Below, piece after piece: positions 1-62,655 of a DNA stretch of 64,000 nucleotides (the first letter of the stretch is position 1; each line of letters opens with the position of its first letter). Origin of the DNA: a virus; the IMG/VR virus record IMGVR_UViG_3300007214_000060, positions 1-64,000 of that record. One strand, 5' to 3'. A program made the translations under genes and the position numbers. The notes beneath the pieces were generated by a model. That model was not told where the DNA came from and searched no databases. It saw nothing but the letters and a program-made list of their open reading frames with translations.

Positions 1-816
1 AATAGAACCTATCAGGTTTTGCCGGATCATATTAACTACAAGATGATTCTTGAGGCGTTGCCAACAGCGACCGCTGATGAACTTCTTGATATTGTTGATG
101 TGGAAAAGGCTGTGGCTACTTTTAGTGATGGTCTTGTTGAGATTAAGAATGGTCAAGTCACCTACGAGGGTGAGGTTGTTCATGGTAGTATCAGCAAGCG
201 TATTCTTGAGTTTATGAGCAAGGGTCTGCCTTTTCAGCCTCTTGTTAATTTCCTTAATAATTTGATGGAGAATCCTAGTATGCAGAGTCAAAAGGAACTC
301 TATGATTTCCTTGAACATGAGCATCTGCCTATTACTGAGGATGGTCACTTCTTGGCTTATAAGGCTGTTAGGAATGACTACATGGATAAGTATCGTGGAA
401 CATTTGATAATAGGGTTGGCAAGATTTGCAAGATGCAAAGAGCCAAGGTTGATGATGATCGTGCTAGGGGTTGTTCTAATGGGCTTCATGCTGGTGCATT
501 GAATTATGTTGCTGGTTACGGGTCTGTGGAAAGTGGTGATCGTATCGTGATCGTCAAGATTAATCCGCGTGATGTTGTTAGCGTTCCTAGTGATTGTAAC
601 TATGAGAAACTTCGCACTTGCCAATATGAAGTTGTTGGAGAGTATCAAGGCGAACTTCTCAAGCCTCTTTATTCGGCTAACTTTTCTGAGGACGAGTATG
701 CTGATTATGAGGATGAGGACGATTATGATCTCGACAATGATTACTGGGATCAGTTTGATGATGACGAGGATGATTACGAGGACGAGGATGATTACGACAA
801 CTCGTACCCTGGCTGA
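1..816 (+). CDS. rIIB: rIIB-like protein (5'-truncated; frame open from base 1), acidic C-terminal tail
   Basis: Motifs LPITEDGHFLAYKAVRNDY, M-x-R-x-x-VDDD, CSNGLH and IVIVKINPRDVVSVPSD..KLRTCQYEV typical of T4 rIIB homologs. Confidence 0.85.
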   Translation, partial: NRTYQVLPDHINYKMILEALPTATADELLDIVDVEKAVATFSDGLVEIKNGQVTYEGEVVHGSISKRILEFMSKGLPFQPLVNFLNNLMENPSMQSQKELYDFLEHEHLPITEDGHFLAYKAVRNDYMDKYRGTFDNRVGKICKMQRAKVDDDRARGCSNGLHAGALNYVAGYGSVESGDRIVIVKINPRDVVSVPSDCNYEKLRTCQYEVVGEYQGELLKPLYSANFSEDEYADYEDEDDYDLDNDYWDQFDDDEDDYEDEDDYDNSYPG

Positions 817-957: not shown

Positions 958-2115
958 ATGTTTAGTGATAATATTGGTTTTAATCCTTTTGACAAGAATA
1001 ATAATGTTCATGCTGGCGGTAATGCTCACAATAGGGGCAGGTTTTTGAATTCATTTAATCAGAACCATATTTATGCTTATAATGGCGATCCTCGAAAGAA
1101 GATCAGCAGTATGAATCATACAGGATTTTTGGACGATGCTCTTACTGCTAACGTAGAAAAAAATTCCGATGTTTACTTCTACATCAATGGTGGTCGCAAA
1201 ATGTACGCGATCAATGAGTTCTCTTGTTGCTTCTGCGATATGGATGCTGGTCGAGACAACGAAGGCAAGTATTTTAAGCCCAGCGTTGTAATGCAGAAGA
1301 AGAAGCAGTTTCTTGATAAGATCAATAACTTTCCGGTTGCTCCTAGTTGGGTAGTTGATACTCGTAACGGATATCAGTGCTACTGGATTTTTGATGATCA
1401 TTCCCGCAAACTTGTTGGCAAAAATAAGACATACTGGAATGGTCTACAAAAGAAACTAGTAAATTACTTCGGTGGCGATCCAAGAGCGATCAAGGCCAAT
1501 CAGATTTATCGTGTTCCTTATACTTGGTGGCGTAAGTGCTGGGAGAAGAAGGCTCCTTATTTTACCAGTATTCTTCCTGGCTCAACTGGTCAAAAGATTC
1601 AGGTTGAACAATTACAGTCCGCTCTTACTGGTCAGACCACAAATATTGTGATTGATCCGGCGAAATGCAGCGACGAATGGTACAAGGGTTATGCTAAGGC
1701 TTATAAGAGAGCCGACGAGAATGGTTTACCAGTGCCAGTTGATGTTGCTCAACAGATTCTTGCTGAATTAACAAATTCTGGTAGAAATAAGTTTACTAAT
1801 CAAGTTCTTGATATGCCAATGAATAACGCCTGTTCTTCAGTCAAGAATGTTTATAACAATGATGATGAGGATACTCTGGACGATGAGTATGTTGGCCGAA
1901 ATAAGGCTTACGGAGAACCGCAGCCGGTTGAGCCAGTTTCATGCGACGGGAAGGGCTGTTTAAACCTGACCCACCAGCAGACCAAACTTTTAAAAACGGT
2001 CGTGGAGTACCTCAATCAAGCGTCCACAGCGTTGTATTTCAGCAACAACCGATTCCTGAGTAGTGCGGCAAAAGACCTTGCTGCTCAACTTGGTGATCAA
2101 TTTTGTGTGGGGTGA
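958..2115 (+). CDS. RepB'-like (AEP superfamily) DNA primase
   Basis: CFCDMD, PSWVVDTRNGYQCYW and GGDP...QIYRVP motifs resemble the RepB' primase N-terminal domain. Confidence 0.65.
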   Translation: MFSDNIGFNPFDKNNNVHAGGNAHNRGRFLNSFNQNHIYAYNGDPRKKISSMNHTGFLDDALTANVEKNSDVYFYINGGRKMYAINEFSCCFCDMDAGRDNEGKYFKPSVVMQKKKQFLDKINNFPVAPSWVVDTRNGYQCYWIFDDHSRKLVGKNKTYWNGLQKKLVNYFGGDPRAIKANQIYRVPYTWWRKCWEKKAPYFTSILPGSTGQKIQVEQLQSALTGQTTNIVIDPAKCSDEWYKGYAKAYKRADENGLPVPVDVAQQILAELTNSGRNKFTNQVLDMPMNNACSSVKNVYNNDDEDTLDDEYVGRNKAYGEPQPVEPVSCDGKGCLNLTHQQTKLLKTVVEYLNQASTALYFSNNRFLSSAAKDLAAQLGDQFCVG

Positions 2116-2555: not shown

Positions 2556-2987
2556 ATGTCAAAATCAGAGTGGTTTGTTGTTCCAAATATAGATGAATTT
2601 GCCCTTAAAGCTAGATCAATAGTCTATGCCAACTTTGGGTCATGGGAAAATAATGACAACTACAATATTCTTATAGATAGTCTAGAAGAAAAAGATCAAG
2701 AGGAATTAGATAAAATACTTTCTCAGCAGGAATCACTGGTAATAATAATAGAAAATCTTAGAAAAGAAAAAAATAAACGAACAAATAAAACTAGGTATGT
2801 TCTCAATGATCAAATTTTTGCAGACATTATAGCTAAATTGAATGAAAGAATGGTTAGTAATATTATAAGTAATTTAGTCCAAAAAGGTTTGGTCGAAACA
2901 GCATTTGATAGTGAAGCAAACGACTTTGTTTTTTGGGTAAAAGAAAATGAATCAAATATTGAAAAAGAAAAACCTGAAACCGATTGA
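2556..2987 (+). CDS. hypothetical protein
   Basis: ORF in operon, preceded by GGGA. Confidence 0.6.
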   Translation: MSKSEWFVVPNIDEFALKARSIVYANFGSWENNDNYNILIDSLEEKDQEELDKILSQQESLVIIIENLRKEKNKRTNKTRYVLNDQIFADIIAKLNERMVSNIISNLVQKGLVETAFDSEANDFVFWVKENESNIEKEKPETD

Positions 2988-3426
2988 GTCTGATGTAAAC
3001 TTCAAGTATAGATGCCCAAAACCAGAGTGCGGTTACTATCATTGGCTTTCACTAAAAGAAGCTCAAACAAAAAATTTTAAGATAGTCTGCGACTGCGGAA
3101 CGGTATTTAAGCCGAAACAAATATCAATAATAAATATTGTATACGCAGAAGACGATAGTACAAAAAAAGATTTACCAAAACAATCTGACTCACAAAAACT
3201 AGAGAATAACAATGCAGACAATTCTGATATATTAACTATCTCAACTAATATTCCCAGTATGCCAGAGCAACTAAATAATAAGTGTGTCAAACTATTAGTA
3301 GAATATGGATTTACAGAACAAGAATCAAAAAAAATTGCGCAAAATGCTTATAAAAAACTGCAAATAAACGATCCAGTATGCTTGGTAAGACAAATTATGC
3401 AAAAATTGGAGGAATATGATGAATAG
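2947..3426 (+). CDS. Zn-ribbon protein with C-terminal RuvA domain III-like helical domain
   Basis: CPKPEC...CDCG N-terminus, low-complexity linker, C-terminal KLLVEYGFTEQESKKIAQ...LVRQIMQKL; overlaps ruvB start. Confidence 0.6.
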   Translation: MNQILKKKNLKPIESDVNFKYRCPKPECGYYHWLSLKEAQTKNFKIVCDCGTVFKPKQISIINIVYAEDDSTKKDLPKQSDSQKLENNNADNSDILTISTNIPSMPEQLNNKCVKLLVEYGFTEQESKKIAQNAYKKLQINDPVCLVRQIMQKLEEYDE

Positions 3427-4312
3427 TCTAAAGAGGCCGATATCTTTCGAAGAAATTATAGGACAGAAAAACGTTGTTGACAGGCTAAGAATATCCACAG
3501 TAGCATGTAAAAAAACCAACGGAGTTTTACCGCATGTTTTAATAGACGGCCCTCCCGGACTTGGTAAAACAACTATTGCTGGGGCAATAGCGAACGAAAT
3601 GGAGGTTAATCTTTATACGGTTAACGCCGCTAATCTAAGGAGTGTAAAAAATATTATCCCGTATCTATTAAGAATGACGCACAGAGCGGTATTTTTTATA
3701 GATGAAATACACAGGCTCTCTAAATTAGTAGAAGAATTTCTTTATCCAGTAATGGAGGATTTTAAGATAAATATTATTCTTGATAAAGAACCAGAAGAAA
3801 TAGATATACCAATGTTTACCCTTGTTGGAGCAACAACGAGTGGAGGTAGTCTTAGTCAACCGTTCTATGATCGTTTTCAAATTAAGGAACATTTATCGTT
3901 CTACTCAGATAATGAACTAGCCAAACTAGCCGGATTGAATGCCACTAAATTAGGATTAGTCATAGCGGATTCAGACCTTTTAGAAATAGCAAAAAGGAGC
4001 AAGGGGACTCCAAGAATATTGAACGCTAGACTACAATGGTATAGTAATTATATTTCTTGTCATCCAAAAGGATCTTATTCTGTTGATGATATTTTTAATG
4101 TTCAGGGAATAGATAGTCTAGGTTTGGATCTATATGATAGAATGTATTTGGATATTCTTAAAAATAATAAAGGAAATCCACTAGGTCTTAAGTCAATATC
4201 TTCGTTAACCGGAATAGCAATTGAAACAATAGAAAATAGCATAGAACCATATCTAGTTAGAAAAGAATTTGTTGTTAGAACCCAAAAAGGAAGAGTTTTA
4301 GGTAAAATATGA
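3416..4312 (+). CDS. ruvB: Holliday junction branch migration ATPase RuvB
   Basis: RP..F.E.IGQ, HVLIDGPPGLGKTT, FIDEIHRL, EEFLYPVMEDF, FTLVGATT, GTPRI, IEPYL, RTQKGR. Confidence 0.95.
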   Translation: MMNSLKRPISFEEIIGQKNVVDRLRISTVACKKTNGVLPHVLIDGPPGLGKTTIAGAIANEMEVNLYTVNAANLRSVKNIIPYLLRMTHRAVFFIDEIHRLSKLVEEFLYPVMEDFKINIILDKEPEEIDIPMFTLVGATTSGGSLSQPFYDRFQIKEHLSFYSDNELAKLAGLNATKLGLVIADSDLLEIAKRSKGTPRILNARLQWYSNYISCHPKGSYSVDDIFNVQGIDSLGLDLYDRMYLDILKNNKGNPLGLKSISSLTGIAIETIENSIEPYLVRKEFVVRTQKGRVLGKI

Positions 4313-5067
4313 TAACTGTTCCAAACGAGACTATCGCAGCCATAGCCTATAATCCATTTTGGCAATCTGAAGATAATATAAATAAGATTTTTTGTTCTCT
4401 TAAATATAAAAACTCTAGAGATTGGTTCACCAATCATGCTTATCATTGTCTTCCTTTAGTTATTGGTAACCAATATGGTTTTGTTGTTAAGTCTATTTAC
4501 GATTTTGAGGTAGAGTGGAACGGTGGAGATTCAGTAGATGATGTGAAAGTAAAAATTCTTAGTGACCAAGATACTTATACAAAAAATCATAATCTACAAA
4601 ATATAAATTCCCATTTCGGTATGGGTGTTGTTACTGTTCAGACAGCATTCTCGTTGAGAACTCCGCCAGGAATTAACCTGATTACGATCAATCCACCAAA
4701 TTATTTTATTGACGGATTATATCACATGACTGGTGTTGTGGAAACTGATAATCTACGAAGGGATTTCACATATAATCTAAAATTAACTAGACCAAATTAT
4801 AAAGTTACTGTAAAAACTGGAGATTATATAGGATGCTTTATACCGTATCCAAGACATTTTATTGATAAATTTGAAATAGTAGATAGCAAACAAATTTTTA
4901 ATGAAAAAGAAATATCAGAGGAAATGCAGTGCATGATAGATTTTGCCAAGGAAAGATCGGAGTATGATAAAAGTAAACCAAACCATAATGGCAAGAGGTA
5001 TTGGCGTGGCGAAGATATTTATGGAAATAAATTTTCTGATCATCAAATATCTCTAGATAAAAAATGA
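4309..5067 (+). CDS. DUF6065-like protein
   Basis: HAYHCLPLVIGNQYGF, SHFGMG, GVVETD..FTYNLKLTRP motifs. Confidence 0.65.
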   Translation: MITVPNETIAAIAYNPFWQSEDNINKIFCSLKYKNSRDWFTNHAYHCLPLVIGNQYGFVVKSIYDFEVEWNGGDSVDDVKVKILSDQDTYTKNHNLQNINSHFGMGVVTVQTAFSLRTPPGINLITINPPNYFIDGLYHMTGVVETDNLRRDFTYNLKLTRPNYKVTVKTGDYIGCFIPYPRHFIDKFEIVDSKQIFNEKEISEEMQCMIDFAKERSEYDKSKPNHNGKRYWRGEDIYGNKFSDHQISLDKK

Positions 5068-5846
5068 AAGTCGCACTCTGTTTATCTGGACAAACTAGAA
5101 ATTTTCAAAAATGTTTTGATAGCCAGAAAAAATATATACTATCAGTATTAAACCCAGATATTTTTATTCACACATGGTCTTACAGAGGTACTTCGAAACT
5201 TCTTCCGTGTCATTGTAAAGAATACAACATATTAGATTTTCAAACGCATCTAATACCAGAAAACAGAACTCATGCTCAAAATTTATTAGAGTATTATGAT
5301 CCTAAATTTTGTCTTATCGAATATCCTGATCATAAGTTTTTTTTAGATAAAATAAGTAGCTCAAAAACTCAGAACGCAAAATATTGGTTTAATGGATTGA
5401 TGATGTATTATAGCATATATATGAGTAATTCTTTAAAAAAACAATATGAAACATTCGCTAATTTTACTTATGATCTAGTTATTAGATGCAGAATGGATCT
5501 ATGCTTTGAGGACGCAAATTTCGGAGACACAGTAAAAGACGCCATAGAAAACAACACAATATATCTTGCGCCAAATGAAAATATAGACAGACCCTTCAAC
5601 CAACAAATGAAAAAAGAACTAAATCATAAAGGTATTTCATATATGCCAAATGATCAGTTCGCATACGGTAGTTCGGAAGCTATGGACTATTATAGTAGCG
5701 TATATACAAAATTTGCAGATAATATCGATTATGCTCCCCACCACGGAGAAGCAACACTGTCTGTACATTTATGGAAAAAAAATTATTCTAAATTTAAAAT
5801 AATCAAGACTAATCCAGATATTAAAATGAAAATAAATTCTTGGTAA
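5064..5846 (+). CDS. putative glycosyltransferase-like protein
   Basis: MKVALCLSGQTR, FIHTW, YDLVIRCRMD, NDQFAYGS..AMDYY motifs common in phage glycan loci. Confidence 0.6.
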   Translation: MKVALCLSGQTRNFQKCFDSQKKYILSVLNPDIFIHTWSYRGTSKLLPCHCKEYNILDFQTHLIPENRTHAQNLLEYYDPKFCLIEYPDHKFFLDKISSSKTQNAKYWFNGLMMYYSIYMSNSLKKQYETFANFTYDLVIRCRMDLCFEDANFGDTVKDAIENNTIYLAPNENIDRPFNQQMKKELNHKGISYMPNDQFAYGSSEAMDYYSSVYTKFADNIDYAPHHGEATLSVHLWKKNYSKFKIIKTNPDIKMKINSW

Positions 5847-30232: not shown

Positions 30233-32974
30233 ATGTCTACAAATCAACATACTATTATTCAATTACGTCGTGGAACAGCCGCTGAATGGAGCGCCAGCAG
30301 CCCTCAACCGGGTGGAGAGATTCTTAAGCTTGGTGAACCAGGTTACGAAAAAGATACCGGTAAGCTAAAAATAGGAGATGGTTCAACTCCCTGGAATAGT
30401 TTGCCTTATGTTGCTATTAGTGGTGGCGGAAGCACAATAGCCGCTGCTGTAGAATGGACTTCCAACCATACGACTGCCGACGGAACCAGGTATTTGGCTG
30501 GTGATCTTGTTTATAGTGCAGGATATTTGTATAGAGCTAAATTTGATAATGAAAGTGAGCCGGTTTCGAACACAACATACTGGCAAAATGTTGGTGCCGG
30601 CTACAGACTCAATATAGATGGGAGGGACATACAAAATATCCCATATCCAGTGACAAGTGTTAATGGTCAGACCGGAGAAGTAGAGATTAGTGGTGGTGGA
30701 GGTCCCTCAAATTTATCAGATCTAGAAGATGTACTTATTCAGGATTTATCTAATAATCAAATATTGAAATTCAATGGATCAGATTGGATAAATGCTCAGG
30801 ATGGGTTGGGTAACATAACAGTAGACGGTACCCCTGGAACAACATATAAGGGTTTTCAGGCTAGCTATGGTAGGGTTTATTCTAATAGCTCTAGCGAAGA
30901 GCTTAATTTAAGTAAAATTATTATCTATAAAGAAACCCCAACCCCGGTAACAACAACAATAGATCCAACAAGTAGCAACGATACTTTTCAAGTAGAAGGA
31001 TTAAATCCAAGTAATATAGTAGCTATGTTTGTGCTGTACGGGGATACTAACGGACCAAAAGAAATAGAAACACTTAAAAGTTTTACTGAAAGCGTTATTG
31101 ATAACGTGTTGTTAGATGGCGGCATTGAGGGATCGTTCAACACAATATCGGATATGAGATCCGCATTCTACAATAGCGCATCAGCATTAACAACAACTGC
31201 TGACGGACTATATACTCAGTTTCAATTTTTTAATAACACATATACAGTGACAACTACCGGTGGAACTGGTTTTAATCTTAGTATATACTTTGAAAGAAAT
31301 CCAACAAACGGTTTATTAATAAATCCGTCAATATCAGATGGTGGTTATGGATGGACTAATGGGTCAAACACAACCATACCAGGAACATCTATTGGTGGGG
31401 TTAGTCCGGATGATGATATTGCGATAACAATTGATGGCGTAGATGTGTCTGGTAGTGCTACCGCCATTACCATTGAACCCGGAGCGGTCATACCAGGAAT
31501 ATGGCCAACAAATAGTATTAGCGATGGAGGAGAAGACCAATACGATACTGCTAATTATATTAGTACAAACTTAGCGTCTAATATTAATTATGACGGCGGT
31601 CAAATCATAAGTGATGGAACAAGTAAGTTTGGTTACGGATCATCATATTGTTTCACATATATTCCTGGAATTTTTGGCTTACTCGTTACTGGAAATAGCG
31701 CCAACTATGTTAGAACAAGCGGAAATAGCGGTGCTGATGGTAGTAGTTTAACTGATTGCGGAGACCTATACTCCCCCTCCACGTCCGCACAAACTTTCGA
31801 CAATGCTATAAATCACATAAATTTAACGGGTACTCCGTATGCTAGTGGGCCAGTAGATTTTGTTCACACGGATAACGGTACAGAAATTGATATTTTAATT
31901 GCTGATGATGGATCAGGATCAGGCGTTGGAATAACAAGAAATAGTAATCAAGGAATATTTAATCCATATAGAGAAGAGGGTTGGAGTTCTAGCATTAGTC
32001 CAGACGGAACGTTGTGGAATACTGACGGGTGGTATAATTTATCGAATGTAACAACTAGATCGTATTCAAACCTATATACCGCATTTGGTTCCGGCGGACT
32101 AGGAAACAAAATAGTTGGAACACAGTGCGTTATGTATTTACCAGATAACGGGAAATACTACACTGTAAAATTTACACAATGGACACAAAATGGAAATGGT
32201 GGTGGATTTGCTTATACAAGAAGAGAGTTGGATATTTCGCAATTACAAGAGGGTATAAGATTTGCTGATGGAACACGACTAACATCTGCTTCTGGTGTGG
32301 GTCCATTAAAATCCACAGCCGCTAGCAATAGACGAATAGAAGAAGCTGTTGGATACAAGGTTGTTAATGTTACTTCTAGAAATCCTGAAACAATATCAAC
32401 AACATTATCAAGATCTGTTACTAATGATTATGGTATATGGATAGATATTCCCACAAGTCTTATTGATGAAATAATCGATAATCCTACAGCTAATGGGGCA
32501 GTAGCTGATACTTTCTATTTTAGCTTGGACAATAACACATGGTACAAATGGAGTGGTAGCACAGGATTTTCTGGTAGTGAGAGGAACTACAGCTTACAAG
32601 GCGATCCGTCTTTAACTTACAATGCTGGAGACACAGTTTATTTTCGTTATGATACTGGTGGATCTCCTGTAGTTTGGTGGGATGCAGCAGAACTGCCGAG
32701 CGGTTCAACCAATTTTAGAGGAGCTATTATAGATTATCATGCTTATAGTGGAGAAGCAACAATAATCGGGACTATTCAGATTGTGGATGATAGTGGAGAA
32801 AAACACATATCACATACCGAAGTAGCTAGTGGTAGCACAGATAGTGAAAACGACGATTTATGGCTCGTACAAAATGAGGGTACTATTAGCTATCGTAGAA
32901 TAGATGGTGAAAGTAAAACCCTTAAAGTTCACTGGAGCGCTAAAGTATTTTATGGTAGTGAATTTTACGACTAA
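30233..32974 (+). CDS. tail/head fibre protein with Mtd-N/hyaluronidase-type N-terminal anchor
   Basis: IQLRRGTAAEW...GEPGYEKDTGKLKIGDG..WNSLPY; VTSVNGQTGEV; LSDLEDV..QILKFNG..W. Confidence 0.8.
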   Translation: MSTNQHTIIQLRRGTAAEWSASSPQPGGEILKLGEPGYEKDTGKLKIGDGSTPWNSLPYVAISGGGSTIAAAVEWTSNHTTADGTRYLAGDLVYSAGYLYRAKFDNESEPVSNTTYWQNVGAGYRLNIDGRDIQNIPYPVTSVNGQTGEVEISGGGGPSNLSDLEDVLIQDLSNNQILKFNGSDWINAQDGLGNITVDGTPGTTYKGFQASYGRVYSNSSSEELNLSKIIIYKETPTPVTTTIDPTSSNDTFQVEGLNPSNIVAMFVLYGDTNGPKEIETLKSFTESVIDNVLLDGGIEGSFNTISDMRSAFYNSASALTTTADGLYTQFQFFNNTYTVTTTGGTGFNLSIYFERNPTNGLLINPSISDGGYGWTNGSNTTIPGTSIGGVSPDDDIAITIDGVDVSGSATAITIEPGAVIPGIWPTNSISDGGEDQYDTANYISTNLASNINYDGGQIISDGTSKFGYGSSYCFTYIPGIFGLLVTGNSANYVRTSGNSGADGSSLTDCGDLYSPSTSAQTFDNAINHINLTGTPYASGPVDFVHTDNGTEIDILIADDGSGSGVGITRNSNQGIFNPYREEGWSSSISPDGTLWNTDGWYNLSNVTTRSYSNLYTAFGSGGLGNKIVGTQCVMYLPDNGKYYTVKFTQWTQNGNGGGFAYTRRELDISQLQEGIRFADGTRLTSASGVGPLKSTAASNRRIEEAVGYKVVNVTSRNPETISTTLSRSVTNDYGIWIDIPTSLIDEIIDNPTANGAVADTFYFSLDNNTWYKWSGSTGFSGSERNYSLQGDPSLTYNAGDTVYFRYDTGGSPVVWWDAAELPSGSTNFRGAIIDYHAYSGEATIIGTIQIVDDSGEKHISHTEVASGSTDSENDDLWLVQNEGTISYRRIDGESKTLKVHWSAKVFYGSEFYD

Positions 32975-48745: not shown

Positions 48746-49160
48746 TACATATCCGTCAAAATATTCTAATGGCAAGTACGTAAGCGCAGCTCAATACATA
48801 ACCGAGCTAATTTGTGAAAACAAAGCCAAGCGAGACAAAGAAGATTTACACTATAGATTTTGGTTAAGTAAAAAATGGGAAAAATACTTTAGAAATCAAA
48901 TAGCCTCATCCCATAAGTTATTACAAACTTATTCTCCACAAGCAATAATTGGCGCATTAAAGAGCGATAAAGCTAAAAATACATACTCGCTAAGATCACC
49001 ATTTTTAAAAACCATAATAGAAGAACAAGAGAAGGTACTAGAAAGTAAAAATTCTAGTCTAAATATATCTTTTGACAGGTCGTCGGACAAAAAGTTTGAA
49101 ACAAATAAAAATATAAAGGGATTACTATCAAAACTAGAGGACATAGACAATGAGCATTAA
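48738..49160 (+). CDS. hypothetical protein
   Basis: ORF immediately upstream of recA. Confidence 0.55.
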   Translation: MADTYPSKYSNGKYVSAAQYITELICENKAKRDKEDLHYRFWLSKKWEKYFRNQIASSHKLLQTYSPQAIIGALKSDKAKNTYSLRSPFLKTIIEEQEKVLESKNSSLNISFDRSSDKKFETNKNIKGLLSKLEDIDNEH

Positions 49161-50169
49161 AGAAGATGTTGTTAAAAATTTTGGTGAAGATATAATCTTG
49201 AGTGGAAATGCTATTATTGACAAAAAAGTACTAACAGTACCAGTTAGCCCTGCTTTGGATATGATACTAGGAGGAGGTATACCAGAAGGAAGTTTTGTGA
49301 TATTAACTGGTCAACCAAAAGGCGGAAAAAGCGTAACGGCCCTAGATTTTGCAGCAACAGCACAAAAAGAAGAATACGCATACGGATCTTTTAAGGAGGG
49401 AAGACAAGTCTACTACTTCAATGTGGAAGGAAGACTAAAGAAAAGAGATATAGAAGGTATACCAGGTCTAAATCTAGATAGATTTCATGTTATAGGTTCG
49501 CAACAAGGTAAAATTTTACACGCAGAAGAGTATTTGCAAATTGCAGAAAAAGTAATAAACGAGGTGCCTGGATCGGTCGTAATAATAGACTCGTACTCTG
49601 CTTTATGTACAGAGGCGGAAATAACTAGCGATATGGATAAGATGCAAAGGGCAGACGGAGCCAAACTTCTTGCTAAATTTTGTAGAAAAGTAGCTAATGT
49701 TATACCGGTTAATAAAAATATAGTTATAGGTATTACGCACTTAATGGGTAATCCAACTGGTTATGGGGCAGAATTTAAAGAAAAAAGTGGTCAGGCTATA
49801 GCTTATCAAACCGACGTAAAACTTAGAATCAAAAAATTTAGTCCGTGGCTAGTGGGTACTGATAATACACAGATAGGGCAAGAGGTTGAGTGGCAAGTTA
49901 TTTGCTCGGCTCTTGGTCCTCCTGGTGGGTCTATAACAAGTTACATACGGTACGGAGAGGGCATAGATAAATATACAGAAGCTATATGTTTAGCTTCGGA
50001 TATTGGTCTGATACACAAGGGCGGCGCTTGGTACACCTTAACTTCTTTGGCCGATAAGCCAAAGTTTCAAGGTACTGAAAAAGTAAGAAATTATTTGATT
50101 GAAAATCAGTCGGCGTACACGGATCTGGTTAACTCTATCAAGAATACTATGGGCATAGCCACAAAATGA
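49150..50169 (+). CDS. recA: RecA recombinase
   Basis: LD..LGGGIP.G, GQPKGGKS Walker A, IIDS, GAWY. Confidence 0.88.
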   Translation: MSIKEDVVKNFGEDIILSGNAIIDKKVLTVPVSPALDMILGGGIPEGSFVILTGQPKGGKSVTALDFAATAQKEEYAYGSFKEGRQVYYFNVEGRLKKRDIEGIPGLNLDRFHVIGSQQGKILHAEEYLQIAEKVINEVPGSVVIIDSYSALCTEAEITSDMDKMQRADGAKLLAKFCRKVANVIPVNKNIVIGITHLMGNPTGYGAEFKEKSGQAIAYQTDVKLRIKKFSPWLVGTDNTQIGQEVEWQVICSALGPPGGSITSYIRYGEGIDKYTEAICLASDIGLIHKGGAWYTLTSLADKPKFQGTEKVRNYLIENQSAYTDLVNSIKNTMGIATK

Positions 50170-57247: not shown

Positions 57248-58294
57248 ATGATAATAACATATCTGAGAAGCAGCTCATATGGAACCCACTGTATGTGCGA
57301 ACAGCAATACTTCATAGAGTACGTGCTTGGATACAGAAGCCCATCAAATAAAAAAGCTGACAAAGGAACCATAGTACACAAAGTTCTCGAAATTTTAGCC
57401 GGTATAAAATTAAGTCAGCAAAATAATGAATTAGAATATATTGATGATATTTTATCCAATATAAGCGTTGATAACTATGATTTAGACAATATTACGGAAC
57501 GCGTTTACAATTACTATACGTCACAGTTTAAACACCACCAATGGGAACTCAAAGATTTTAAAGATTGTCACAAGTGGGTCTATAAAGCCCTCACTGACCA
57601 CAATGGTGTCTTTGACCCAAGATCAAGAACCATACTGATGCCGGAGCAGCACTTTGATATAGTGATCGATAAACCTTGGGCAGATTATAGGTACGAAACA
57701 AAAGATGGTGCTATTGAGGGAAAATTGGCTATTAAGGGAACAATTGATCTTATTACAAAAGTTAATGATTCCACCCTAGAGGTAATAGACTGGAAAACCG
57801 GTAGACGACTAGACTGGGCAACAGGAGAAGAAAAAACTATTGAAAAACTGTATAAAGATCCTCAGCTCAAGATATACCATTATGCGCTCAGTAAATTGTA
57901 TCCACAATATGACCATATAATAATGTCCATCAATTTTATAAATGATGGTGGAGCATTTAGTATGTGTTTCGATAAGTCAGATTTATCTAGCACAGAAGAC
58001 CTGATAAGAAAAAAGTTTGAAGAAATCAAATCGTGTAAAAAACCAAGATTAAGTAAAACATGGAAATGTAGCAAGCTCTGTCATTTTGGAAAAAACACGT
58101 TTCAAAATAATAACTCGGTTTTGCCTATAATAGAGTATAGAGATGGTCAAGCCTGTAAAAAGGGAGATTATATGACGGTGTGTGAACAAATCAGACACGA
58201 TATAGAGCTTAACGGTATGAAGTCGGTGGTTGACACATACACGACCAAAGGTTATACTGTTGGTAAGTACAAAGCTCCGGGAAGCACAGAATGA
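57248..58294 (+). CDS. PD-(D/E)xK RecB/Cas4-like exonuclease
   Basis: C..QY, GTIVH..LE, GTIDL, IDWKTG, QL.IY, C..LC...C. Confidence 0.85.
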   Translation: MIITYLRSSSYGTHCMCEQQYFIEYVLGYRSPSNKKADKGTIVHKVLEILAGIKLSQQNNELEYIDDILSNISVDNYDLDNITERVYNYYTSQFKHHQWELKDFKDCHKWVYKALTDHNGVFDPRSRTILMPEQHFDIVIDKPWADYRYETKDGAIEGKLAIKGTIDLITKVNDSTLEVIDWKTGRRLDWATGEEKTIEKLYKDPQLKIYHYALSKLYPQYDHIIMSINFINDGGAFSMCFDKSDLSSTEDLIRKKFEEIKSCKKPRLSKTWKCSKLCHFGKNTFQNNNSVLPIIEYRDGQACKKGDYMTVCEQIRHDIELNGMKSVVDTYTTKGYTVGKYKAPGSTE

Positions 58295-60186
58295 GTTATA
58301 GCGTATTGCATTGTCATTCGACATACTCTCTGTTGGATGGACTTTCTAAGCCTGATCAGATAGCTTCAAGATGCAAAGAAATAGGTGTTAATAATTGCGC
58401 CTTAACGGATCACGGCAACATATCCGGGGCTGTTAAATTTTATTCTGCTATGAAGCGAGCTGGAATAAAACCTATTTTAGGGTGTGAGCTATATATTTGC
58501 AACGATCATTCGTCAATTAAAGAAACATCAAATAGAGATCTAACTCATTTTATAGTACTAGCAAAAAATTATAATGGCTGGAAGAGTCTAATTAAATTAG
58601 TATCAGAATCAAATAAAATTGATAATTTCTATCACAAACCAAGACTAAGTTTACAGCAGCTATCTGAGTTTGCTAATGGGCAGAATCTTATAGCAATAGT
58701 CGGTCATCTTGGCTCATTATTAGCAGACAAAATTATAATAAATAATTCTATTGTTGGTAATTGGAAAGACATTGGAGTTGAAACAATAAATAAAATTAAA
58801 GAAATTTTTGGTGATAATAATTTGTTTTTGGAAGCACAGTTAATGGACAAGGAAAATATACCAATACAAACAGAGCTAACAGAATGTATTAGAGAACTTG
58901 GTAAATTAACAAACACAAAAGTTATCTGCACTCCGGACGCTCATTATTGCAGGAAAGAGGACGCTGTTGATCAAAGAGTTTTGTTGTGCAATAATCTGAA
59001 AACAACTTTCCCTGAAATAAATAGAAAAATTAGTAATAACGAAGACGTACCAATGTCTTGCTTTTTCTTATCTGATAATTATCACATATTGTCTTACGAG
59101 GAAATTAAAAATTTACATACCCAAGAAGAAATAGACAATACGAACTATGTAGCATCTTTGATAGACGAATACGACATATTGAGTGGGCCAAACCTACCTA
59201 AATATCAATGCCCAGATGATCTAGATCCGGATGAATATTTAAGACACCTTTGTAGAAAAGGATGGAAAGAAAAGATAGAATCAAAAATTCCAAAGGAAGA
59301 TCAAACAAATTACGTTGACAGGATCAAACACGAACTAGATGTTTTGCAAAAGGCTAAATTAAGTAGTTACTTCTTAATTGTACAGGATATTCTGAGTTTT
59401 GTAAAAAGTAATGGGTGGCTACCTTCTCCTGGTAGGGGTAGCGCAGCTGGTTGCCTTGTGTCCTATTTAATAGGTATTACTAATATAGATCCTATAAAAT
59501 ATGATTTATTATTTGAAAGATTTTATAATGTTGGAAGATCCTCTGGAAACAAAATTTCTTTACCAGATATTGATGTTGATGTGCCGATATTAAAAAGAGA
59601 ATATGTAATAGAATATATAAAAAATAAGTATGGATCAGATAAGGTTTCTCAGATGATAACGTTTAATACTATGAAAGGAAGAGGTGCGTTAAAAGACGTA
59701 CTAAGAGTTTACGGGAATATTAGTTTTGAAGAGATGAACAATATAACAAAATATATTCCAGACGAAGCTAAAATTTCTGATGAGCTTCAAGAAATGAAAG
59801 AGGAAACTGGAGAAGCTTCAATTATAAGATGGGCTTTAGAAAATAATGGAGACAAACTAAAAGAATGGTGTTACTTAGACGAAAATAATGAGCTTCAAGG
59901 CCCACTGTCTAAAAGATTTGAGCAAGCAATGCGATTGGAGGGAACAAAAACTAATCAGTCTAAACACGCCGCCGGTATAGCTGTTAGCTCCATGCCATTG
60001 CACGAGTTGTGTCCTATGATATATGATACAAAGACACACCAACCCATCGCGGGTATGGAGATGCAAGACCTGGAGAGTATTGGGATCATTAAACTAGATA
60101 TCCTCGGCATAGCCTTGCTAGATAAAATTATGAATATATCTGAATTACTAAAAGAAGGAGTAGAATATGTCAACCAAAAAATTTAA
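58291..60186 (+). CDS. dnaE: DNA polymerase III alpha, N-terminal part (PHP, palm, thumb)
   Basis: LHCHS.YSLLDG, TDHG, DAHY, GRGSAAG, FERF, PDIDVD, HAAG, KLDILG. Confidence 0.93.
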   Translation: MSYSVLHCHSTYSLLDGLSKPDQIASRCKEIGVNNCALTDHGNISGAVKFYSAMKRAGIKPILGCELYICNDHSSIKETSNRDLTHFIVLAKNYNGWKSLIKLVSESNKIDNFYHKPRLSLQQLSEFANGQNLIAIVGHLGSLLADKIIINNSIVGNWKDIGVETINKIKEIFGDNNLFLEAQLMDKENIPIQTELTECIRELGKLTNTKVICTPDAHYCRKEDAVDQRVLLCNNLKTTFPEINRKISNNEDVPMSCFFLSDNYHILSYEEIKNLHTQEEIDNTNYVASLIDEYDILSGPNLPKYQCPDDLDPDEYLRHLCRKGWKEKIESKIPKEDQTNYVDRIKHELDVLQKAKLSSYFLIVQDILSFVKSNGWLPSPGRGSAAGCLVSYLIGITNIDPIKYDLLFERFYNVGRSSGNKISLPDIDVDVPILKREYVIEYIKNKYGSDKVSQMITFNTMKGRGALKDVLRVYGNISFEEMNNITKYIPDEAKISDELQEMKEETGEASIIRWALENNGDKLKEWCYLDENNELQGPLSKRFEQAMRLEGTKTNQSKHAAGIAVSSMPLHELCPMIYDTKTHQPIAGMEMQDLESIGIIKLDILGIALLDKIMNISELLKEGVEYVNQKI

Positions 60187-60361
60187 AGATATTAATATTG
60201 ATCAAGTTTTTACATATAAAAACACACAATATAAAAAAATTCCAGAAAAAAAGATAAGTTGCTGCAAGCGACTGAACGCTTGTGCTGTTGGGTCTAAAAA
60301 AACAGAGATACAAATCAATCCACTAGAAGATGTAGAGGTTGATGATAATGAACAAAAATAA
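60167..60361 (+). CDS. small hypothetical protein between dnaE halves
   Basis: AGGAG RBS; overlaps neighbours. Confidence 0.6.
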   Translation: MSTKKFKDINIDQVFTYKNTQYKKIPEKKISCCKRLNACAVGSKKTEIQINPLEDVEVDDNEQK

Positions 60362-61034
60362 AATTTGCGTATTTGATATGGAGACCGACGGATCCGACCC
60401 CAAAATATGCAGTCCGGTACAATTGGCTGCTGTAATGGTGGATCCAGTAAATTTGGAGATAATAGAAGATTCAGAATTCAACATTAAACTAAAACCAGAA
60501 ACGCTTGAGCAGGATGAGTCTTATCAGTATACTACTGACATCTTAGATTTTCACGCAAAGGTCAAAGGCTGTTCAAAAGATGATATTTTAAGAGACTGGA
60601 AAACATATCAATCCCAACAACACGGATGGGATATGTTTGTAAATTATCTAGATAAATATCATACAAGATCAACTAAAAAAAGTCAATTTAGTGCGCCAAT
60701 AGCCGCTGGGTATAACATCTATAGGTTCGATTTGGTTATAGTTAATAGATTAAGTAATAAGTACAACAACACCAATAAAGAAGGTCAAACAGATCTGTTT
60801 TATCCTAGAGATGTTGTTGACATGATGAATTTAGTTTTTTATTGGTTTGAAAATAGCAACGACTTAAAAAGCTACACCTTGGATAATCTTCGTGATTATC
60901 TTGGTATCAGTAAAGATGGTGCGCACGACGCAATGAAAGACGTATATGATACTGCTAATATATTAATTAGATTTTTAAGACTACATAGAAATTTATCTCA
61001 AAAAATTAAGTTTAAATCTGCTTTTCAAAAATAA
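60339..61034 (+). CDS. DEDDh 3'-5' exonuclease (DnaQ/epsilon-like)
   Basis: FDMET, GYN..FD, AHDA..DV. Confidence 0.85.
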   Translation: MMIMNKNKICVFDMETDGSDPKICSPVQLAAVMVDPVNLEIIEDSEFNIKLKPETLEQDESYQYTTDILDFHAKVKGCSKDDILRDWKTYQSQQHGWDMFVNYLDKYHTRSTKKSQFSAPIAAGYNIYRFDLVIVNRLSNKYNNTNKEGQTDLFYPRDVVDMMNLVFYWFENSNDLKSYTLDNLRDYLGISKDGAHDAMKDVYDTANILIRFLRLHRNLSQKIKFKSAFQK

Positions 61035-61035
61035 A

Positions 61036-62655
61036 ATGTCAAATAGCCAGTTCACATATCCTTGCGGATGTTGTTTTGCGACGGATGTGGTTGATAACAA
61101 AAAAAGTTTAGTATTTGATACAAATATAGATAATATTAATCTTGGTTGTTCTAAAACTTGGGATATTATTGCGTCTGGAAATACAAAAGGAATTTTTCAA
61201 TTAGAATCTAGGCTAGGAAGATCCATAGCAAAAAAATTGAAACCAGAAAATATAGATCAACTATCTGCTCTTATAGCAATTTTAAGACCAGGAACACTAG
61301 AGGCTTATAGAGATGGTAAAAGTGTAACACAACACTATATAGATAAAAAAAATGGTTTAGAAAGCATTGATTATTTTCACCCATCTTTGGAACCTATACT
61401 TAAAAGCACTCTCGGGGAGTTAATCTATCAGGAGCAAGCCATGAGAATAGCGTCCGATATAGCCGGATTTACTTTACAGGAGGCCGATGAACTAAGAAAA
61501 GCTATTGGTAAAAAATTAGCAGATAAAATGGCTCAGGTCAAAGAAAAGTTTATAGACGGATGCAACAAACTAAAAATAGTGACTAATGACGAGGCTCTTC
61601 AAATTTTTGGTTGGATAGAGAAATCACAAAGATATTTATTCAATGCTAGTCACAGCGTTAGCTATGCAATGAACGCGTACCTGTCAGCCTATGCAAAATC
61701 TCATTTTACAAAAATATTTTTTGCATCCTATTTAAAATTTGCTAAAGATAAAATGAACCCTCAGGAAGAAATTAAAGCATTAGTTCAAAACGCAAACGAG
61801 ATGGACATAACAGTTAGCACTCCAGATATACGATTAATGAATCAAAACTTTGTTTTAAAACATAATAAGATCTATTTTGGATTAACAGATATCAAAGGTT
61901 TCGGAGATTCTGTTTTTAGTAAATTAAAAAATATCATAGATTCTACAAAAATTAACCCGTACGAATCATGGCTAACAACACTGTTTAATGTATTGCTAAA
62001 CATCAACTCAGTAGCAGCAAAATCTCTAATAGAGAGTGGCTCGGTGAGTTTTCTTGGTAAATCAAGAAATAGTATGTTATTTGAACTAAATATAGCGCAA
62101 AAATTAACCAATAAAGAAATAGAGTTTATTTTGGGCATATTAGATAATGCAAAAACATTAAAGGATTGTTTGTGTCTGTTGAAAAATAAACCAAGAACAA
62201 CAAAAAATAGACTCAAAGCTATAGATGATTTAATCGTATCTATAAATAATCCACCATATTCACTACAGGATACGCCGGAATGGATAGCAGATGTTGAAGA
62301 CAGTTGCCTTGGGTGCTCGATAACTTGCTCAAAGCTAGATCTTTATGACATAAGTATGTGCAATTGTTCTTGTAGAGACTTTAAAAATGGAAAACAAAAA
62401 AGCGTTATAATAGGCGGTGAAATAGATTATATTAATGTTACAAAAACAAAGACTGGAAAATCAAAAGGATCTGATATGTGTTTCGTTAATTTAACTGATC
62501 AGACCGGTAGCATTGATAACGTTATATTTTTTCCTGAACAATATAAAAAACATAAAAATTTGTTATTCCAAGGAAATATCGTTATATTATTTGGAGATAG
62601 AAGCAAAAGCGGCGACGGCCTAATCGTAGAAAAAGCATATGTAGCTAGAACTTGA
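61036..62655 (+). CDS. dnaE: DNA polymerase III alpha, C-terminal part (fingers, HhH, OB fold)
   Basis: T.GIFQLES, AILRPG, IYQEQ, ADELRKAIGKK, FNASHS.SY, FGL..IKG.G, M.F..L.D.TG. Confidence 0.92.
   Translation: MSNSQFTYPCGCCFATDVVDNKKSLVFDTNIDNINLGCSKTWDIIASGNTKGIFQLESRLGRSIAKKLKPENIDQLSALIAILRPGTLEAYRDGKSVTQHYIDKKNGLESIDYFHPSLEPILKSTLGELIYQEQAMRIASDIAGFTLQEADELRKAIGKKLADKMAQVKEKFIDGCNKLKIVTNDEALQIFGWIEKSQRYLFNASHSVSYAMNAYLSAYAKSHFTKIFFASYLKFAKDKMNPQEEIKALVQNANEMDITVSTPDIRLMNQNFVLKHNKIYFGLTDIKGFGDSVFSKLKNIIDSTKINPYESWLTTLFNVLLNINSVAAKSLIESGSVSFLGKSRNSMLFELNIAQKLTNKEIEFILGILDNAKTLKDCLCLLKNKPRTTKNRLKAIDDLIVSINNPPYSLQDTPEWIADVEDSCLGCSITCSKLDLYDISMCNCSCRDFKNGKQKSVIIGGEIDYINVTKTKTGKSKGSDMCFVNLTDQTGSIDNVIFFPEQYKKHKNLLFQGNIVILFGDRSKSGDGLIVEKAYVART

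Follow-up and report, generated by a model that had tools for sequence, protein, structure and literature searches.

A zinc-ribbon protein with a probable RuvA domain III is encoded directly upstream of ruvB in uncultured large phages

RuvAB is the textbook branch-migration machine of bacteria, and to our knowledge the three-domain build of its RuvA subunit is treated as nearly universal. A locus in the IMG/VR virus record IMGVR_UViG_3300007214_000060 makes it possible to ask what minimum of DNA recognition is sufficient for a RuvB motor. We analysed the first 64,000 nucleotides (nt) of this 93,396-base record, which is ~68% complete according to CheckV; this stretch is called the window below. 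A sequence-only reading of the window had described a gene that overlaps the start of ruvB and encodes a zinc ribbon, a linker and a C-terminal module resembling RuvA domain III (D3), and the coordinates of the open reading frames (ORFs) and the domain analysis bore this description out. We conclude that the product of this gene, here called the adaptor, and RuvB are a real, conserved and unannotated variant of RuvAB, a natural stripped-down form of it. The layout of the two genes is as follows (aa, amino acids).

2947..3426, plus strand: adaptor gene, 159 aa in the ORF list; zinc ribbon, linker and RuvA domain III-like module
2947..3144, plus strand: adaptor residues 1-66; Lys-rich leader, then C4 zinc ribbon
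3145..3258, plus strand: adaptor residues 67-104; disordered low-complexity linker
3259..3423, plus strand: adaptor residues 105-159; three-helix domain, very probable RuvA domain III homolog
3408..3414, plus strand: Shine-Dalgarno sequence GGAGGAA of ruvB, read within the final codons of the adaptor
3416..4312, plus strand: ruvB, 298 aa; AAA+ branch-migration motor
3767..3808, plus strand: RuvB N-domain beta-hairpin I118-I131; predicted docking site of the adaptor D3

The adaptor and ruvB overlap by 11 nt, with ATG codons at 3416 and 3419 and the adaptor stop codon TAG at 3424-3426. Because of this overlap, and of a ruvB Shine-Dalgarno sequence located inside adaptor codons with the ATGs after it, we consider the two genes to be translationally coupled. 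A word-indexed search yielded 88 adaptor homologs of 110-168 aa, and a profile search run exhaustively over 1.84 billion representatives yielded 440 clusters (50% identity) at E <= 1e-3, 253 of which had E <= 1e-10. Among the best 150 of the 440 clusters, nearly all proteins were 105-184 aa long and matched the profile end to end, with a two-domain build in common, the few shorter rows being partial. No fused form of greater length turned up in a search aimed at such proteins, though this is weak evidence. Residues Y21, C23, C28, W33, K42, F44, V47, C48, C50, G121 and E126 were invariant in an alignment of 48 family members.

Comparison of the C-terminal domain with proteins of known structure pointed to RuvA. 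Residues 105-156 form three helices, slightly acidic in composition, with a predicted local distance difference test score (pLDDT) of ~90. The family profile, compared with all PDB sequences, ranked RuvA D3 first (1ixs_A, E 0.0032), followed by 1ixr, 7pbp and 7pbl, and RuvA made up six of its nine matches. Comparison by hhalign with an alignment of seven bacterial RuvA sequences gave a probability of 71% (E 3.6e-5, 53 columns), and the region aligned was exactly RuvA 147-199 and no other part of RuvA. The top Foldseek matches were RuvA 2ztc_A and 7oa5_D, with a root-mean-square deviation (rmsd) of 1.7 A over 48-50 columns and a probability of 0.99. VIA-align, a search independent of Foldseek, put RuvA D3 in places 1-4 among 48,161 chains, with Z 6.1-6.3 and an rmsd of 1.8-2.1 A over 48-50 residues, ahead of a Z of 4.8 for the following match. 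One neighbour cluster in the ESM Atlas carries RuvA_C on 50% of its members, and two adaptor homologs bear the JGI name RuvABC DNA-binding subunit.

The residues by which RuvA is known to act on RuvB have counterparts in the adaptor. The L167A and L170A substitutions of E. coli RuvA abolished RuvB activity in vivo while junction binding was unaffected (PMC2628435). E. coli residues L167, L170, G171, Y172 and E176 correspond to L117, Y120, G121, F122 and E126 of the adaptor, and L194 and L199 correspond to L146 and M151. In the 48 homologs, position 117 is Leu or Met in 100%, position 120 is Tyr, Phe or Leu, G121 and E126 are each present in 100%, position 122 is only Phe or Tyr (Phe in 45 of 48) and the counterpart of L199 is always Leu, Ile, Met or Val. 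All seven columns that are invariant in the RuvA D3 alignment are thus occupied by conserved, chemically similar adaptor residues. Since several largely independent comparisons of sequence and structure rank RuvA D3 first and the key residues map, the C-terminal domain is very probably a diverged but true homolog of RuvA D3, as judged from alignments and a structural model.

This assignment has to be weighed against a generic UBA-like three-helix bundle without a RuvB interface, which would make the protein a small zinc-finger regulator with no more than an operon in common with ruvB. UBA and CUE domains have a small topology in common with RuvA D3 and appeared lower in both fold searches (VIA-align Z 3.6-4.7; Foldseek probability up to 0.41), the adaptor is dispensable, as described below, and the Foldseek E-values of the RuvA matches, ~0.4 for so small a domain, are not significant. 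The homology is also remote: the E-values that support it lie between 1e-3 and 1e-5, a Z of ~6 concerns a helical domain of 50 residues, and in a direct Pfam scan the adaptor of the window itself fell under the threshold of RuvA_C (PF07499). That scan, proposed along with the sequence-only reading, gave a divided answer, as four of the 48 family members did match RuvA_C (best E 3.8e-4). RuvA D3 nevertheless came first in four independent comparisons (profile, profile-profile and two structure searches), with UBA and CUE domains ranking below it in every search; UBA domains gave no match in the sequence-profile search against PDB, and UBA/CUE domains have no link to AAA+ motors. The seven conserved columns, the strict adjacency to ruvB (76 of 76 loci) and a complex prediction that passed its mark while its controls scored 0.00-0.02 also argue against a generic bundle, which we regard as quite improbable. 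The earlier view of the C terminus as RuvA domain III-like thus held.

The N-terminal half of the adaptor bears no resemblance of this kind to RuvA. Residues 1-66 were modelled by AlphaFold2 with a pLDDT of ~95 and contain the zinc ribbon pattern C23-x4-C28 ... C48-x-C50-G, together with the motifs HW and TKNFK(I/V)VCDCG. The net charge of this domain is +7 in the window protein and +7.9 on average in the family, over ~64 residues and with a range of +4 to +13, compared with a family mean of -1.1 for D3. Its mean column identity (58%) is above that of D3. Fold searches returned only generic zinc ribbons (ZitP, LysW and ribosomal proteins) with Z <= 3.1, and all Foldseek matches of the N-domain had E >= 0.7. 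Pfam IBR matched the adaptor at E 0.0052, under the cut-off, and gave weak matches in 18 of the 48 members; direct Pfam and PHROG scans left the adaptor without a Pfam annotation and without a PHROG family, no PHROG being informative. Residues 67-104 have a pLDDT of 44-49, and the length of this linker is 10-48 aa in the 48 homologs. It parallels the flexible 15-aa linker that joins RuvA domains II and III (PMC2628435).

Neither of the other two RuvA domains was found in the adaptor. The domain I OB fold (PF01330) gave no Pfam match on the adaptor at E <= 1, and the AlphaFold2 model has the zinc ribbon at that place. No helix-hairpin-helix (HhH) family, as in RuvA domain II, was among the Pfam matches of the adaptor and its homologs. 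Six-frame searches of the whole record and of 10 complete relatives of 154-238 kb did not find RuvA_N, RuvA_C or RuvC, which extends the earlier statement that no other ruvA or ruvC accompanies the pair to the record and these genomes. The RuvA_N search was positive in 10 of 14 control genomes. The six-frame PF07499 search was negative also in five genomes in which the adaptor is known to occur; its silence in adaptor-less genomes therefore means little, since it is too insensitive for a diverged D3, and an adaptor profile was used instead.

RuvA domains I and II could also have been split off into a separate nearby gene that assembles with the adaptor, for which the gene immediately upstream comes into question.

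2556..2987, plus strand: ORF143, conserved gene 5' of the adaptor; possible winged helix

The 3' end of ORF143 overlaps the adaptor start by 41 nt. Its product of 143 aa is close in length to RuvA domains I and II together (140 aa), and the gene was present in all 80 related loci retrieved with RuvB, directly upstream of the adaptor or of ruvB. Comparison of ORF143 with RuvA by hhalign, however, gave a probability of 0.3%, its profile found no RuvA in PDB, its weak structural look-alikes were winged helices of the MarR, PadR and DsrD type, and the RuvA_N searches of the record and the 10 complete relatives were negative. ORF143 was rejected as a hidden RuvA on the hhalign and PDB profile results, and a split RuvA is hardly credible. 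The absence of RuvA domains I and II noted in the sequence-only reading was thereby upheld.

The motor itself is canonical, to judge from its sequence. Pfam recognised RuvB_N (2.6e-46), AAA_lid_4 (2.4e-07) and RuvB_C (6.8e-19) with 157.7, 30.8 and 68.0 bits, all three exceeding the curated cut-offs of 27, 27 and 24.7 bits, and over residues 7-294 the phage protein shares 41% identity with its E. coli counterpart. Walker A (GPPGLGKTT, 45-53), Walker B (D96/E97) and sensor 1, the Arg finger and sensor 2 (T140/T141, R153 and R200) were invariant in 38 RuvB relatives, and these motifs align with those of E. coli RuvB. In the C-terminal domain, R282 and R293 were invariant and R288 and K291 nearly invariant in the same relatives; the arginines of the C-terminal hairpin of RuvB have a role in DNA contact (PMC10071043). 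The hairpin I118-I131 aligns to L135-L152 of E. coli RuvB, the known RuvA contact (PMC2628435, PMC10272136); its tip lacks four residues relative to that of E. coli, and its hydrophobic positions I120, L122, I129 and I131 are conserved. In one RuvB subclade the hairpin tip is 5-7 residues longer than in the window and rich in Asp, Glu and Lys, e.g. KDEEDKDKEKPE; this subclade (loci L044, L049, L053-L056, L059, L061, L064, L066, L070 and L075) occurs both with and without the adaptor.

We examined the linkage of the two genes from both sides. With RuvB, 80 viral loci were retrieved (66-82% identity), and the adaptor abuts ruvB in 57 of them. With the adaptor profile, 79 further loci were retrieved, 76 of which have at least 300 nt downstream, and ruvB abuts the adaptor in all 76; the adaptor was never seen without ruvB directly downstream where there was room for it. 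The pair is therefore conserved in related phages, where synteny had been suggested as a check, with loss of the adaptor in 23 of the 80 RuvB loci.

The strict linkage also bears on a role directed at the host. Phages often encode decoys of host complex subunits, and the adaptor D3 keeps the residues by which bacterial RuvA binds RuvB, so that it could target host RuvB and sequester or recruit it, as an anti-host or hijacking factor. The phage ruvB was directly downstream of the adaptor in every locus with room, however, the two genes are translationally coupled, and the phage RuvB hairpin, shorter by 4 aa than that of E. coli, suggests a co-adapted pair. Because the adaptor is so strictly coupled to the phage's own ruvB, a host-directed decoy is improbable.

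The structure of the complex was predicted with full-length RuvB and adaptor residues 100-159, each with its alignment, in three runs. The ipSAE score was 0.41-0.43 in the three runs, compared with 0.00, 0.00 and 0.02 for three controls, which was rated as weak support. Of 80 solved complexes, 58 attained the mark, as did 2 of 110 mismatched pairs; scores at or below 0.60 that still reached it came from only seven of the 80 solved complexes and from both mismatches. Contacts agreed at 100% between the runs and the pLDDT of the partner was at least 84. The multimer prediction proposed earlier thus separated the pair from its controls and passed the mark, though only in the weak range. Taking the genomic and structural evidence together, the adaptor probably binds the phage RuvB physically, and the genomic linkage is the stronger argument for the pairing.

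On balance we favour a reading of the 159-aa protein as a dedicated accessory subunit of the phage RuvB, a "mini-RuvA" whose D3 docks on the RuvB hairpin and whose basic zinc ribbon holds DNA. In RuvAB, D3 holds the rotating hexamer to the RuvA core on the junction, through hydrophobic docking on the RuvB hairpin (PMC10272136, PMC10071043). The hydrophobic face of the adaptor D3 (L117, Y120, F122 and M151) would pack against the beta-hairpin in the ATPase domain of RuvB, as D3 does in the bacterial complex, and the flexible linker would connect it to the C4 zinc ribbon, sited where RuvA has its OB and HhH domains. By binding DNA, the ribbon would load RuvB hexamers onto branched intermediates or anchor them there; these intermediates would be produced by the phage RecA during recombination-dependent replication or repair and resolved by endonuclease VII, not RuvC. 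The adaptor would be helpful and not essential, having been lost repeatedly in related phages that kept RuvB. By analogy, its architecture would copy the logic of RuvA: a proposed nucleic-acid-binding module, a flexible linker and D3.

What the zinc ribbon binds is the least certain part of the mini-RuvA proposal, and we rate DNA as its target at about even chances. DNA is favoured over protein because of the strongly positive net charge of the N-domain. A protein target is nevertheless a serious rival, because the folds matched by the N-domain are generic zinc ribbons only and because this domain is the more conserved half of the adaptor. With D3 docking unchanged, the ribbon would then tether RuvB to ORF143, RecA, the DnaB/DnaE replisome or endonuclease VII, for example. 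Conservation above that of D3 is what a conserved protein partner would lead one to expect, the best of the weak fold matches, ZitP, is a protein-binding zinc finger, and ORF143, whose end overlaps the adaptor start, is adjacent upstream in 76 of 78 adaptor loci. A charge of +4 to +13 in every member fits nucleic acid better, however, and in loci that have lost the adaptor ORF143 and the other neighbours are still there, unchanged; we hold such a protein bridge to be rather unlikely. If the ribbon does bind DNA, it might also, in line with the redirection conjectured in the sequence-only reading, steer RuvB to a substrate other than a junction, such as replication forks or D-loops, in recombination-dependent replication. 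More tentative, and somewhat doubtful, is the proposal that one basic zinc ribbon of ~60 residues, tethered flexibly to D3, suffices to load and anchor a RuvB hexamer on branched DNA, as a minimal RuvA without the OB fold, the HhH motifs and a RuvA-type tetramer. If this were true, the stator or loader role of D3 would be separated from junction recognition.

Several results weigh against the mini-RuvA proposal. The score of the predicted complex is in the weak range, and its pass may reflect memory of, or likeness to, solved structures, since RuvA-D3/RuvB complexes are among these (1IXS, 7PBL). The best fold match of the N-domain is the ZitP finger, at Z 3.1 and rmsd 3.4 A over 46 residues. 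The adaptor is cleanly missing from 23 of the 80 RuvB loci, in which ORF143 ends 10-60 nt before ruvB. The adaptor profile search found it nowhere in five complete RuvB-bearing genomes, the same search being positive in five of five complete genomes known to carry the adaptor. In these adaptor-less phages RuvB may use host RuvA or act alone, and the hairpin is mostly intact in their lineages. Because these loci and genomes keep RuvB without the adaptor, the latter is an accessory and not an obligate factor of RuvB.

The distribution of the adaptor on the RuvB tree, rooted with E. coli, showed that its absences are scattered, with 11 changes on the best tree, at least two of them forced by strongly supported branches, while the adaptor is present in all major clades; it has therefore been lost repeatedly. 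RuvB hairpin positions 120 and 122 were both hydrophobic in 89 of 91 RuvBs with the adaptor and in 17 of 23 without it (Fisher p 0.0008, uncorrected for phylogeny), a polar residue at either position being found in 2 of 91 and 6 of 23, respectively. A test on phylogenetically independent pairs could use only five well-supported pairs and had no power (median p 0.5). A relaxed constraint on the hairpin after loss of the adaptor is thus a hint, suggestive only, drawn from the sequences compared.

The recombination genes of these phages give the pair a plausible setting.

49150..50169, plus strand: RecA-type recombinase (Pfam RecA 1.1e-19, with RecA_C)

A RecA gene was present in all five genomes searched and an endonuclease VII homolog in all four complete relatives tested; RusA was found neither in the record nor in these four relatives. 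The phage also encodes DnaB, a Toprim primase and a PD-(D/E)XK nuclease. Because RecA and endonuclease VII are encoded by the phages, ordinary processing of Holliday junctions or forks is the simplest substrate for the motor, and not an exotic one. As side observations, the PD-(D/E)XK nuclease gene lies at 57248-58294 (2.3e-18) and, with RecA, RuvB and the endonuclease VII of the complete relatives, makes up a largely bacterial-type phage recombination kit. DNA polymerase III alpha is encoded by two genes, one with the PHP and NTPase domains (58291-60186) and one with the finger, HhH and OB domains (61036-62655); these halves of split DnaE flank a gene for a DnaQ-like exonuclease with an RNase_T domain (60339-61034).

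Comparison with known systems places the pair between bacterial RuvAB and the recombination systems of phages. The references for RuvAB were those of E. coli, T. thermophilus and S. thermophilus (PDB 1IXS/1IXR, 7PBL-7PBT and 7X7P/7X7Q). Like these, the phage has a canonical RuvB motor with an N-domain beta-hairpin and a partner gene directly upstream of ruvB and overlapping it. The C terminus of this partner has a RuvA domain III fold in which the hydrophobic residues that contact RuvB are retained, and a flexible linker separates this domain from the remainder of the protein, again as in RuvA. Unlike RuvA, the phage partner has neither domain I (OB) nor domain II (two HhH motifs), with a basic C4 zinc ribbon of ~60 aa instead, so that the known junction-binding and tetramer-forming parts of RuvA are lacking. 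The phage system further differs from bacterial RuvAB in its RuvB hairpin, 4 aa shorter than that of E. coli, in the absence of RuvC, with endonuclease VII in the complete relatives instead, and in a partner that is dispensable in related phages. T4-type recombination relies on the UvsX recombinase, on UvsW or gp41 for branch migration and on endonuclease VII as resolvase. The phage resembles it in having its own RecA-family recombinase and, in the complete relatives, an endonuclease VII-family resolvase; branch migration would use a bacterial-type RuvB hexamer with a D3 adaptor rather than an SF2 (superfamily 2) helicase such as UvsW.

The adaptor appears to be confined to uncultured large phages. 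It gave no tblastn match in 50,697 deposited phage records, where the closest RuvB matches were at most 42% identical and came mostly from unverified records. An ordinary RuvA ORF stands upstream of ruvB in four such records whose flanks were read (Staphylococcus, Enterococcus and two fecal contigs, all unannotated), and Wolbachia and Acinetobacter records annotate ruvA upstream of their RuvB matches. Among 185,579 species genomes, the adaptor was found in only one 1.1-kb contig, from a metagenome-assembled genome of Alphaproteobacteria and too short to name the host. A full-text literature search found no published zinc-ribbon/D3 partner of RuvB. According to a comparative review of jumbo phages, RuvC in these phages lacks coupling to a RuvB-like ATPase (PMC7824862); the pair adds a bacterial-type RuvB pathway to phage recombination. 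The family of 440 clusters keeps the RuvB-docking domain and replaces the junction-binding core by a zinc ribbon, and thus offers a small natural system for the role of D3 itself, as a tether, an allosteric activator or a stator, with the repeated clean losses of the adaptor as natural knock-outs for comparison.

The DNA of the record is present in aquaculture and freshwater-sediment metagenomes. In one sediment metatranscriptome library, a single contig of 208 nt was identical to ruvB at 3620-3827, for which carry-over of DNA is possible, and the adaptor was not covered in that library, this ruvB contig being the only one there.

The order of the module upstream of ruvB is conserved: ORF271, the primase-like ORF385 (variable), ORF142, ORF143, the adaptor (variable) and RuvB. 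The invariant residues of ORF143 cluster in its C-terminal segment '...RMVSN...LV.KG...D...NDFVFW', and this protein may be a second RuvB-linked factor. ORF271 (window 1-816) heads the module in 75 of the 80 loci, has a mean column identity of 77% in 22 relatives and carries a long acidic tail rich in Asp, Glu and Tyr; it had no Pfam match, and its profile found nothing in PDB. ORF385 (window 958-2115, 385 aa) gave weak PHROG matches to DNA polymerase and primase families (E 0.023) and no Pfam match, and it was present in 51 of the 80 related loci, some of which end short upstream. Genes downstream of ruvB vary among the 80 loci. In the window, a gene for a DUF6065 protein (4.7e-41) overlaps the ruvB stop codon (ATGA) and is followed by an ORF of 260 aa, the pair spanning 4309-5846; these two genes occur in 3 and 2 of the 80 loci, respectively, and relatives have a thioredoxin-like or an HNH gene there. 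Farther downstream, 30233-32974 encodes a protein of 913 aa whose N terminus matches Mtd_N (major tropism determinant, 9.3e-12) and which probably serves as a tail fibre or in receptor binding.

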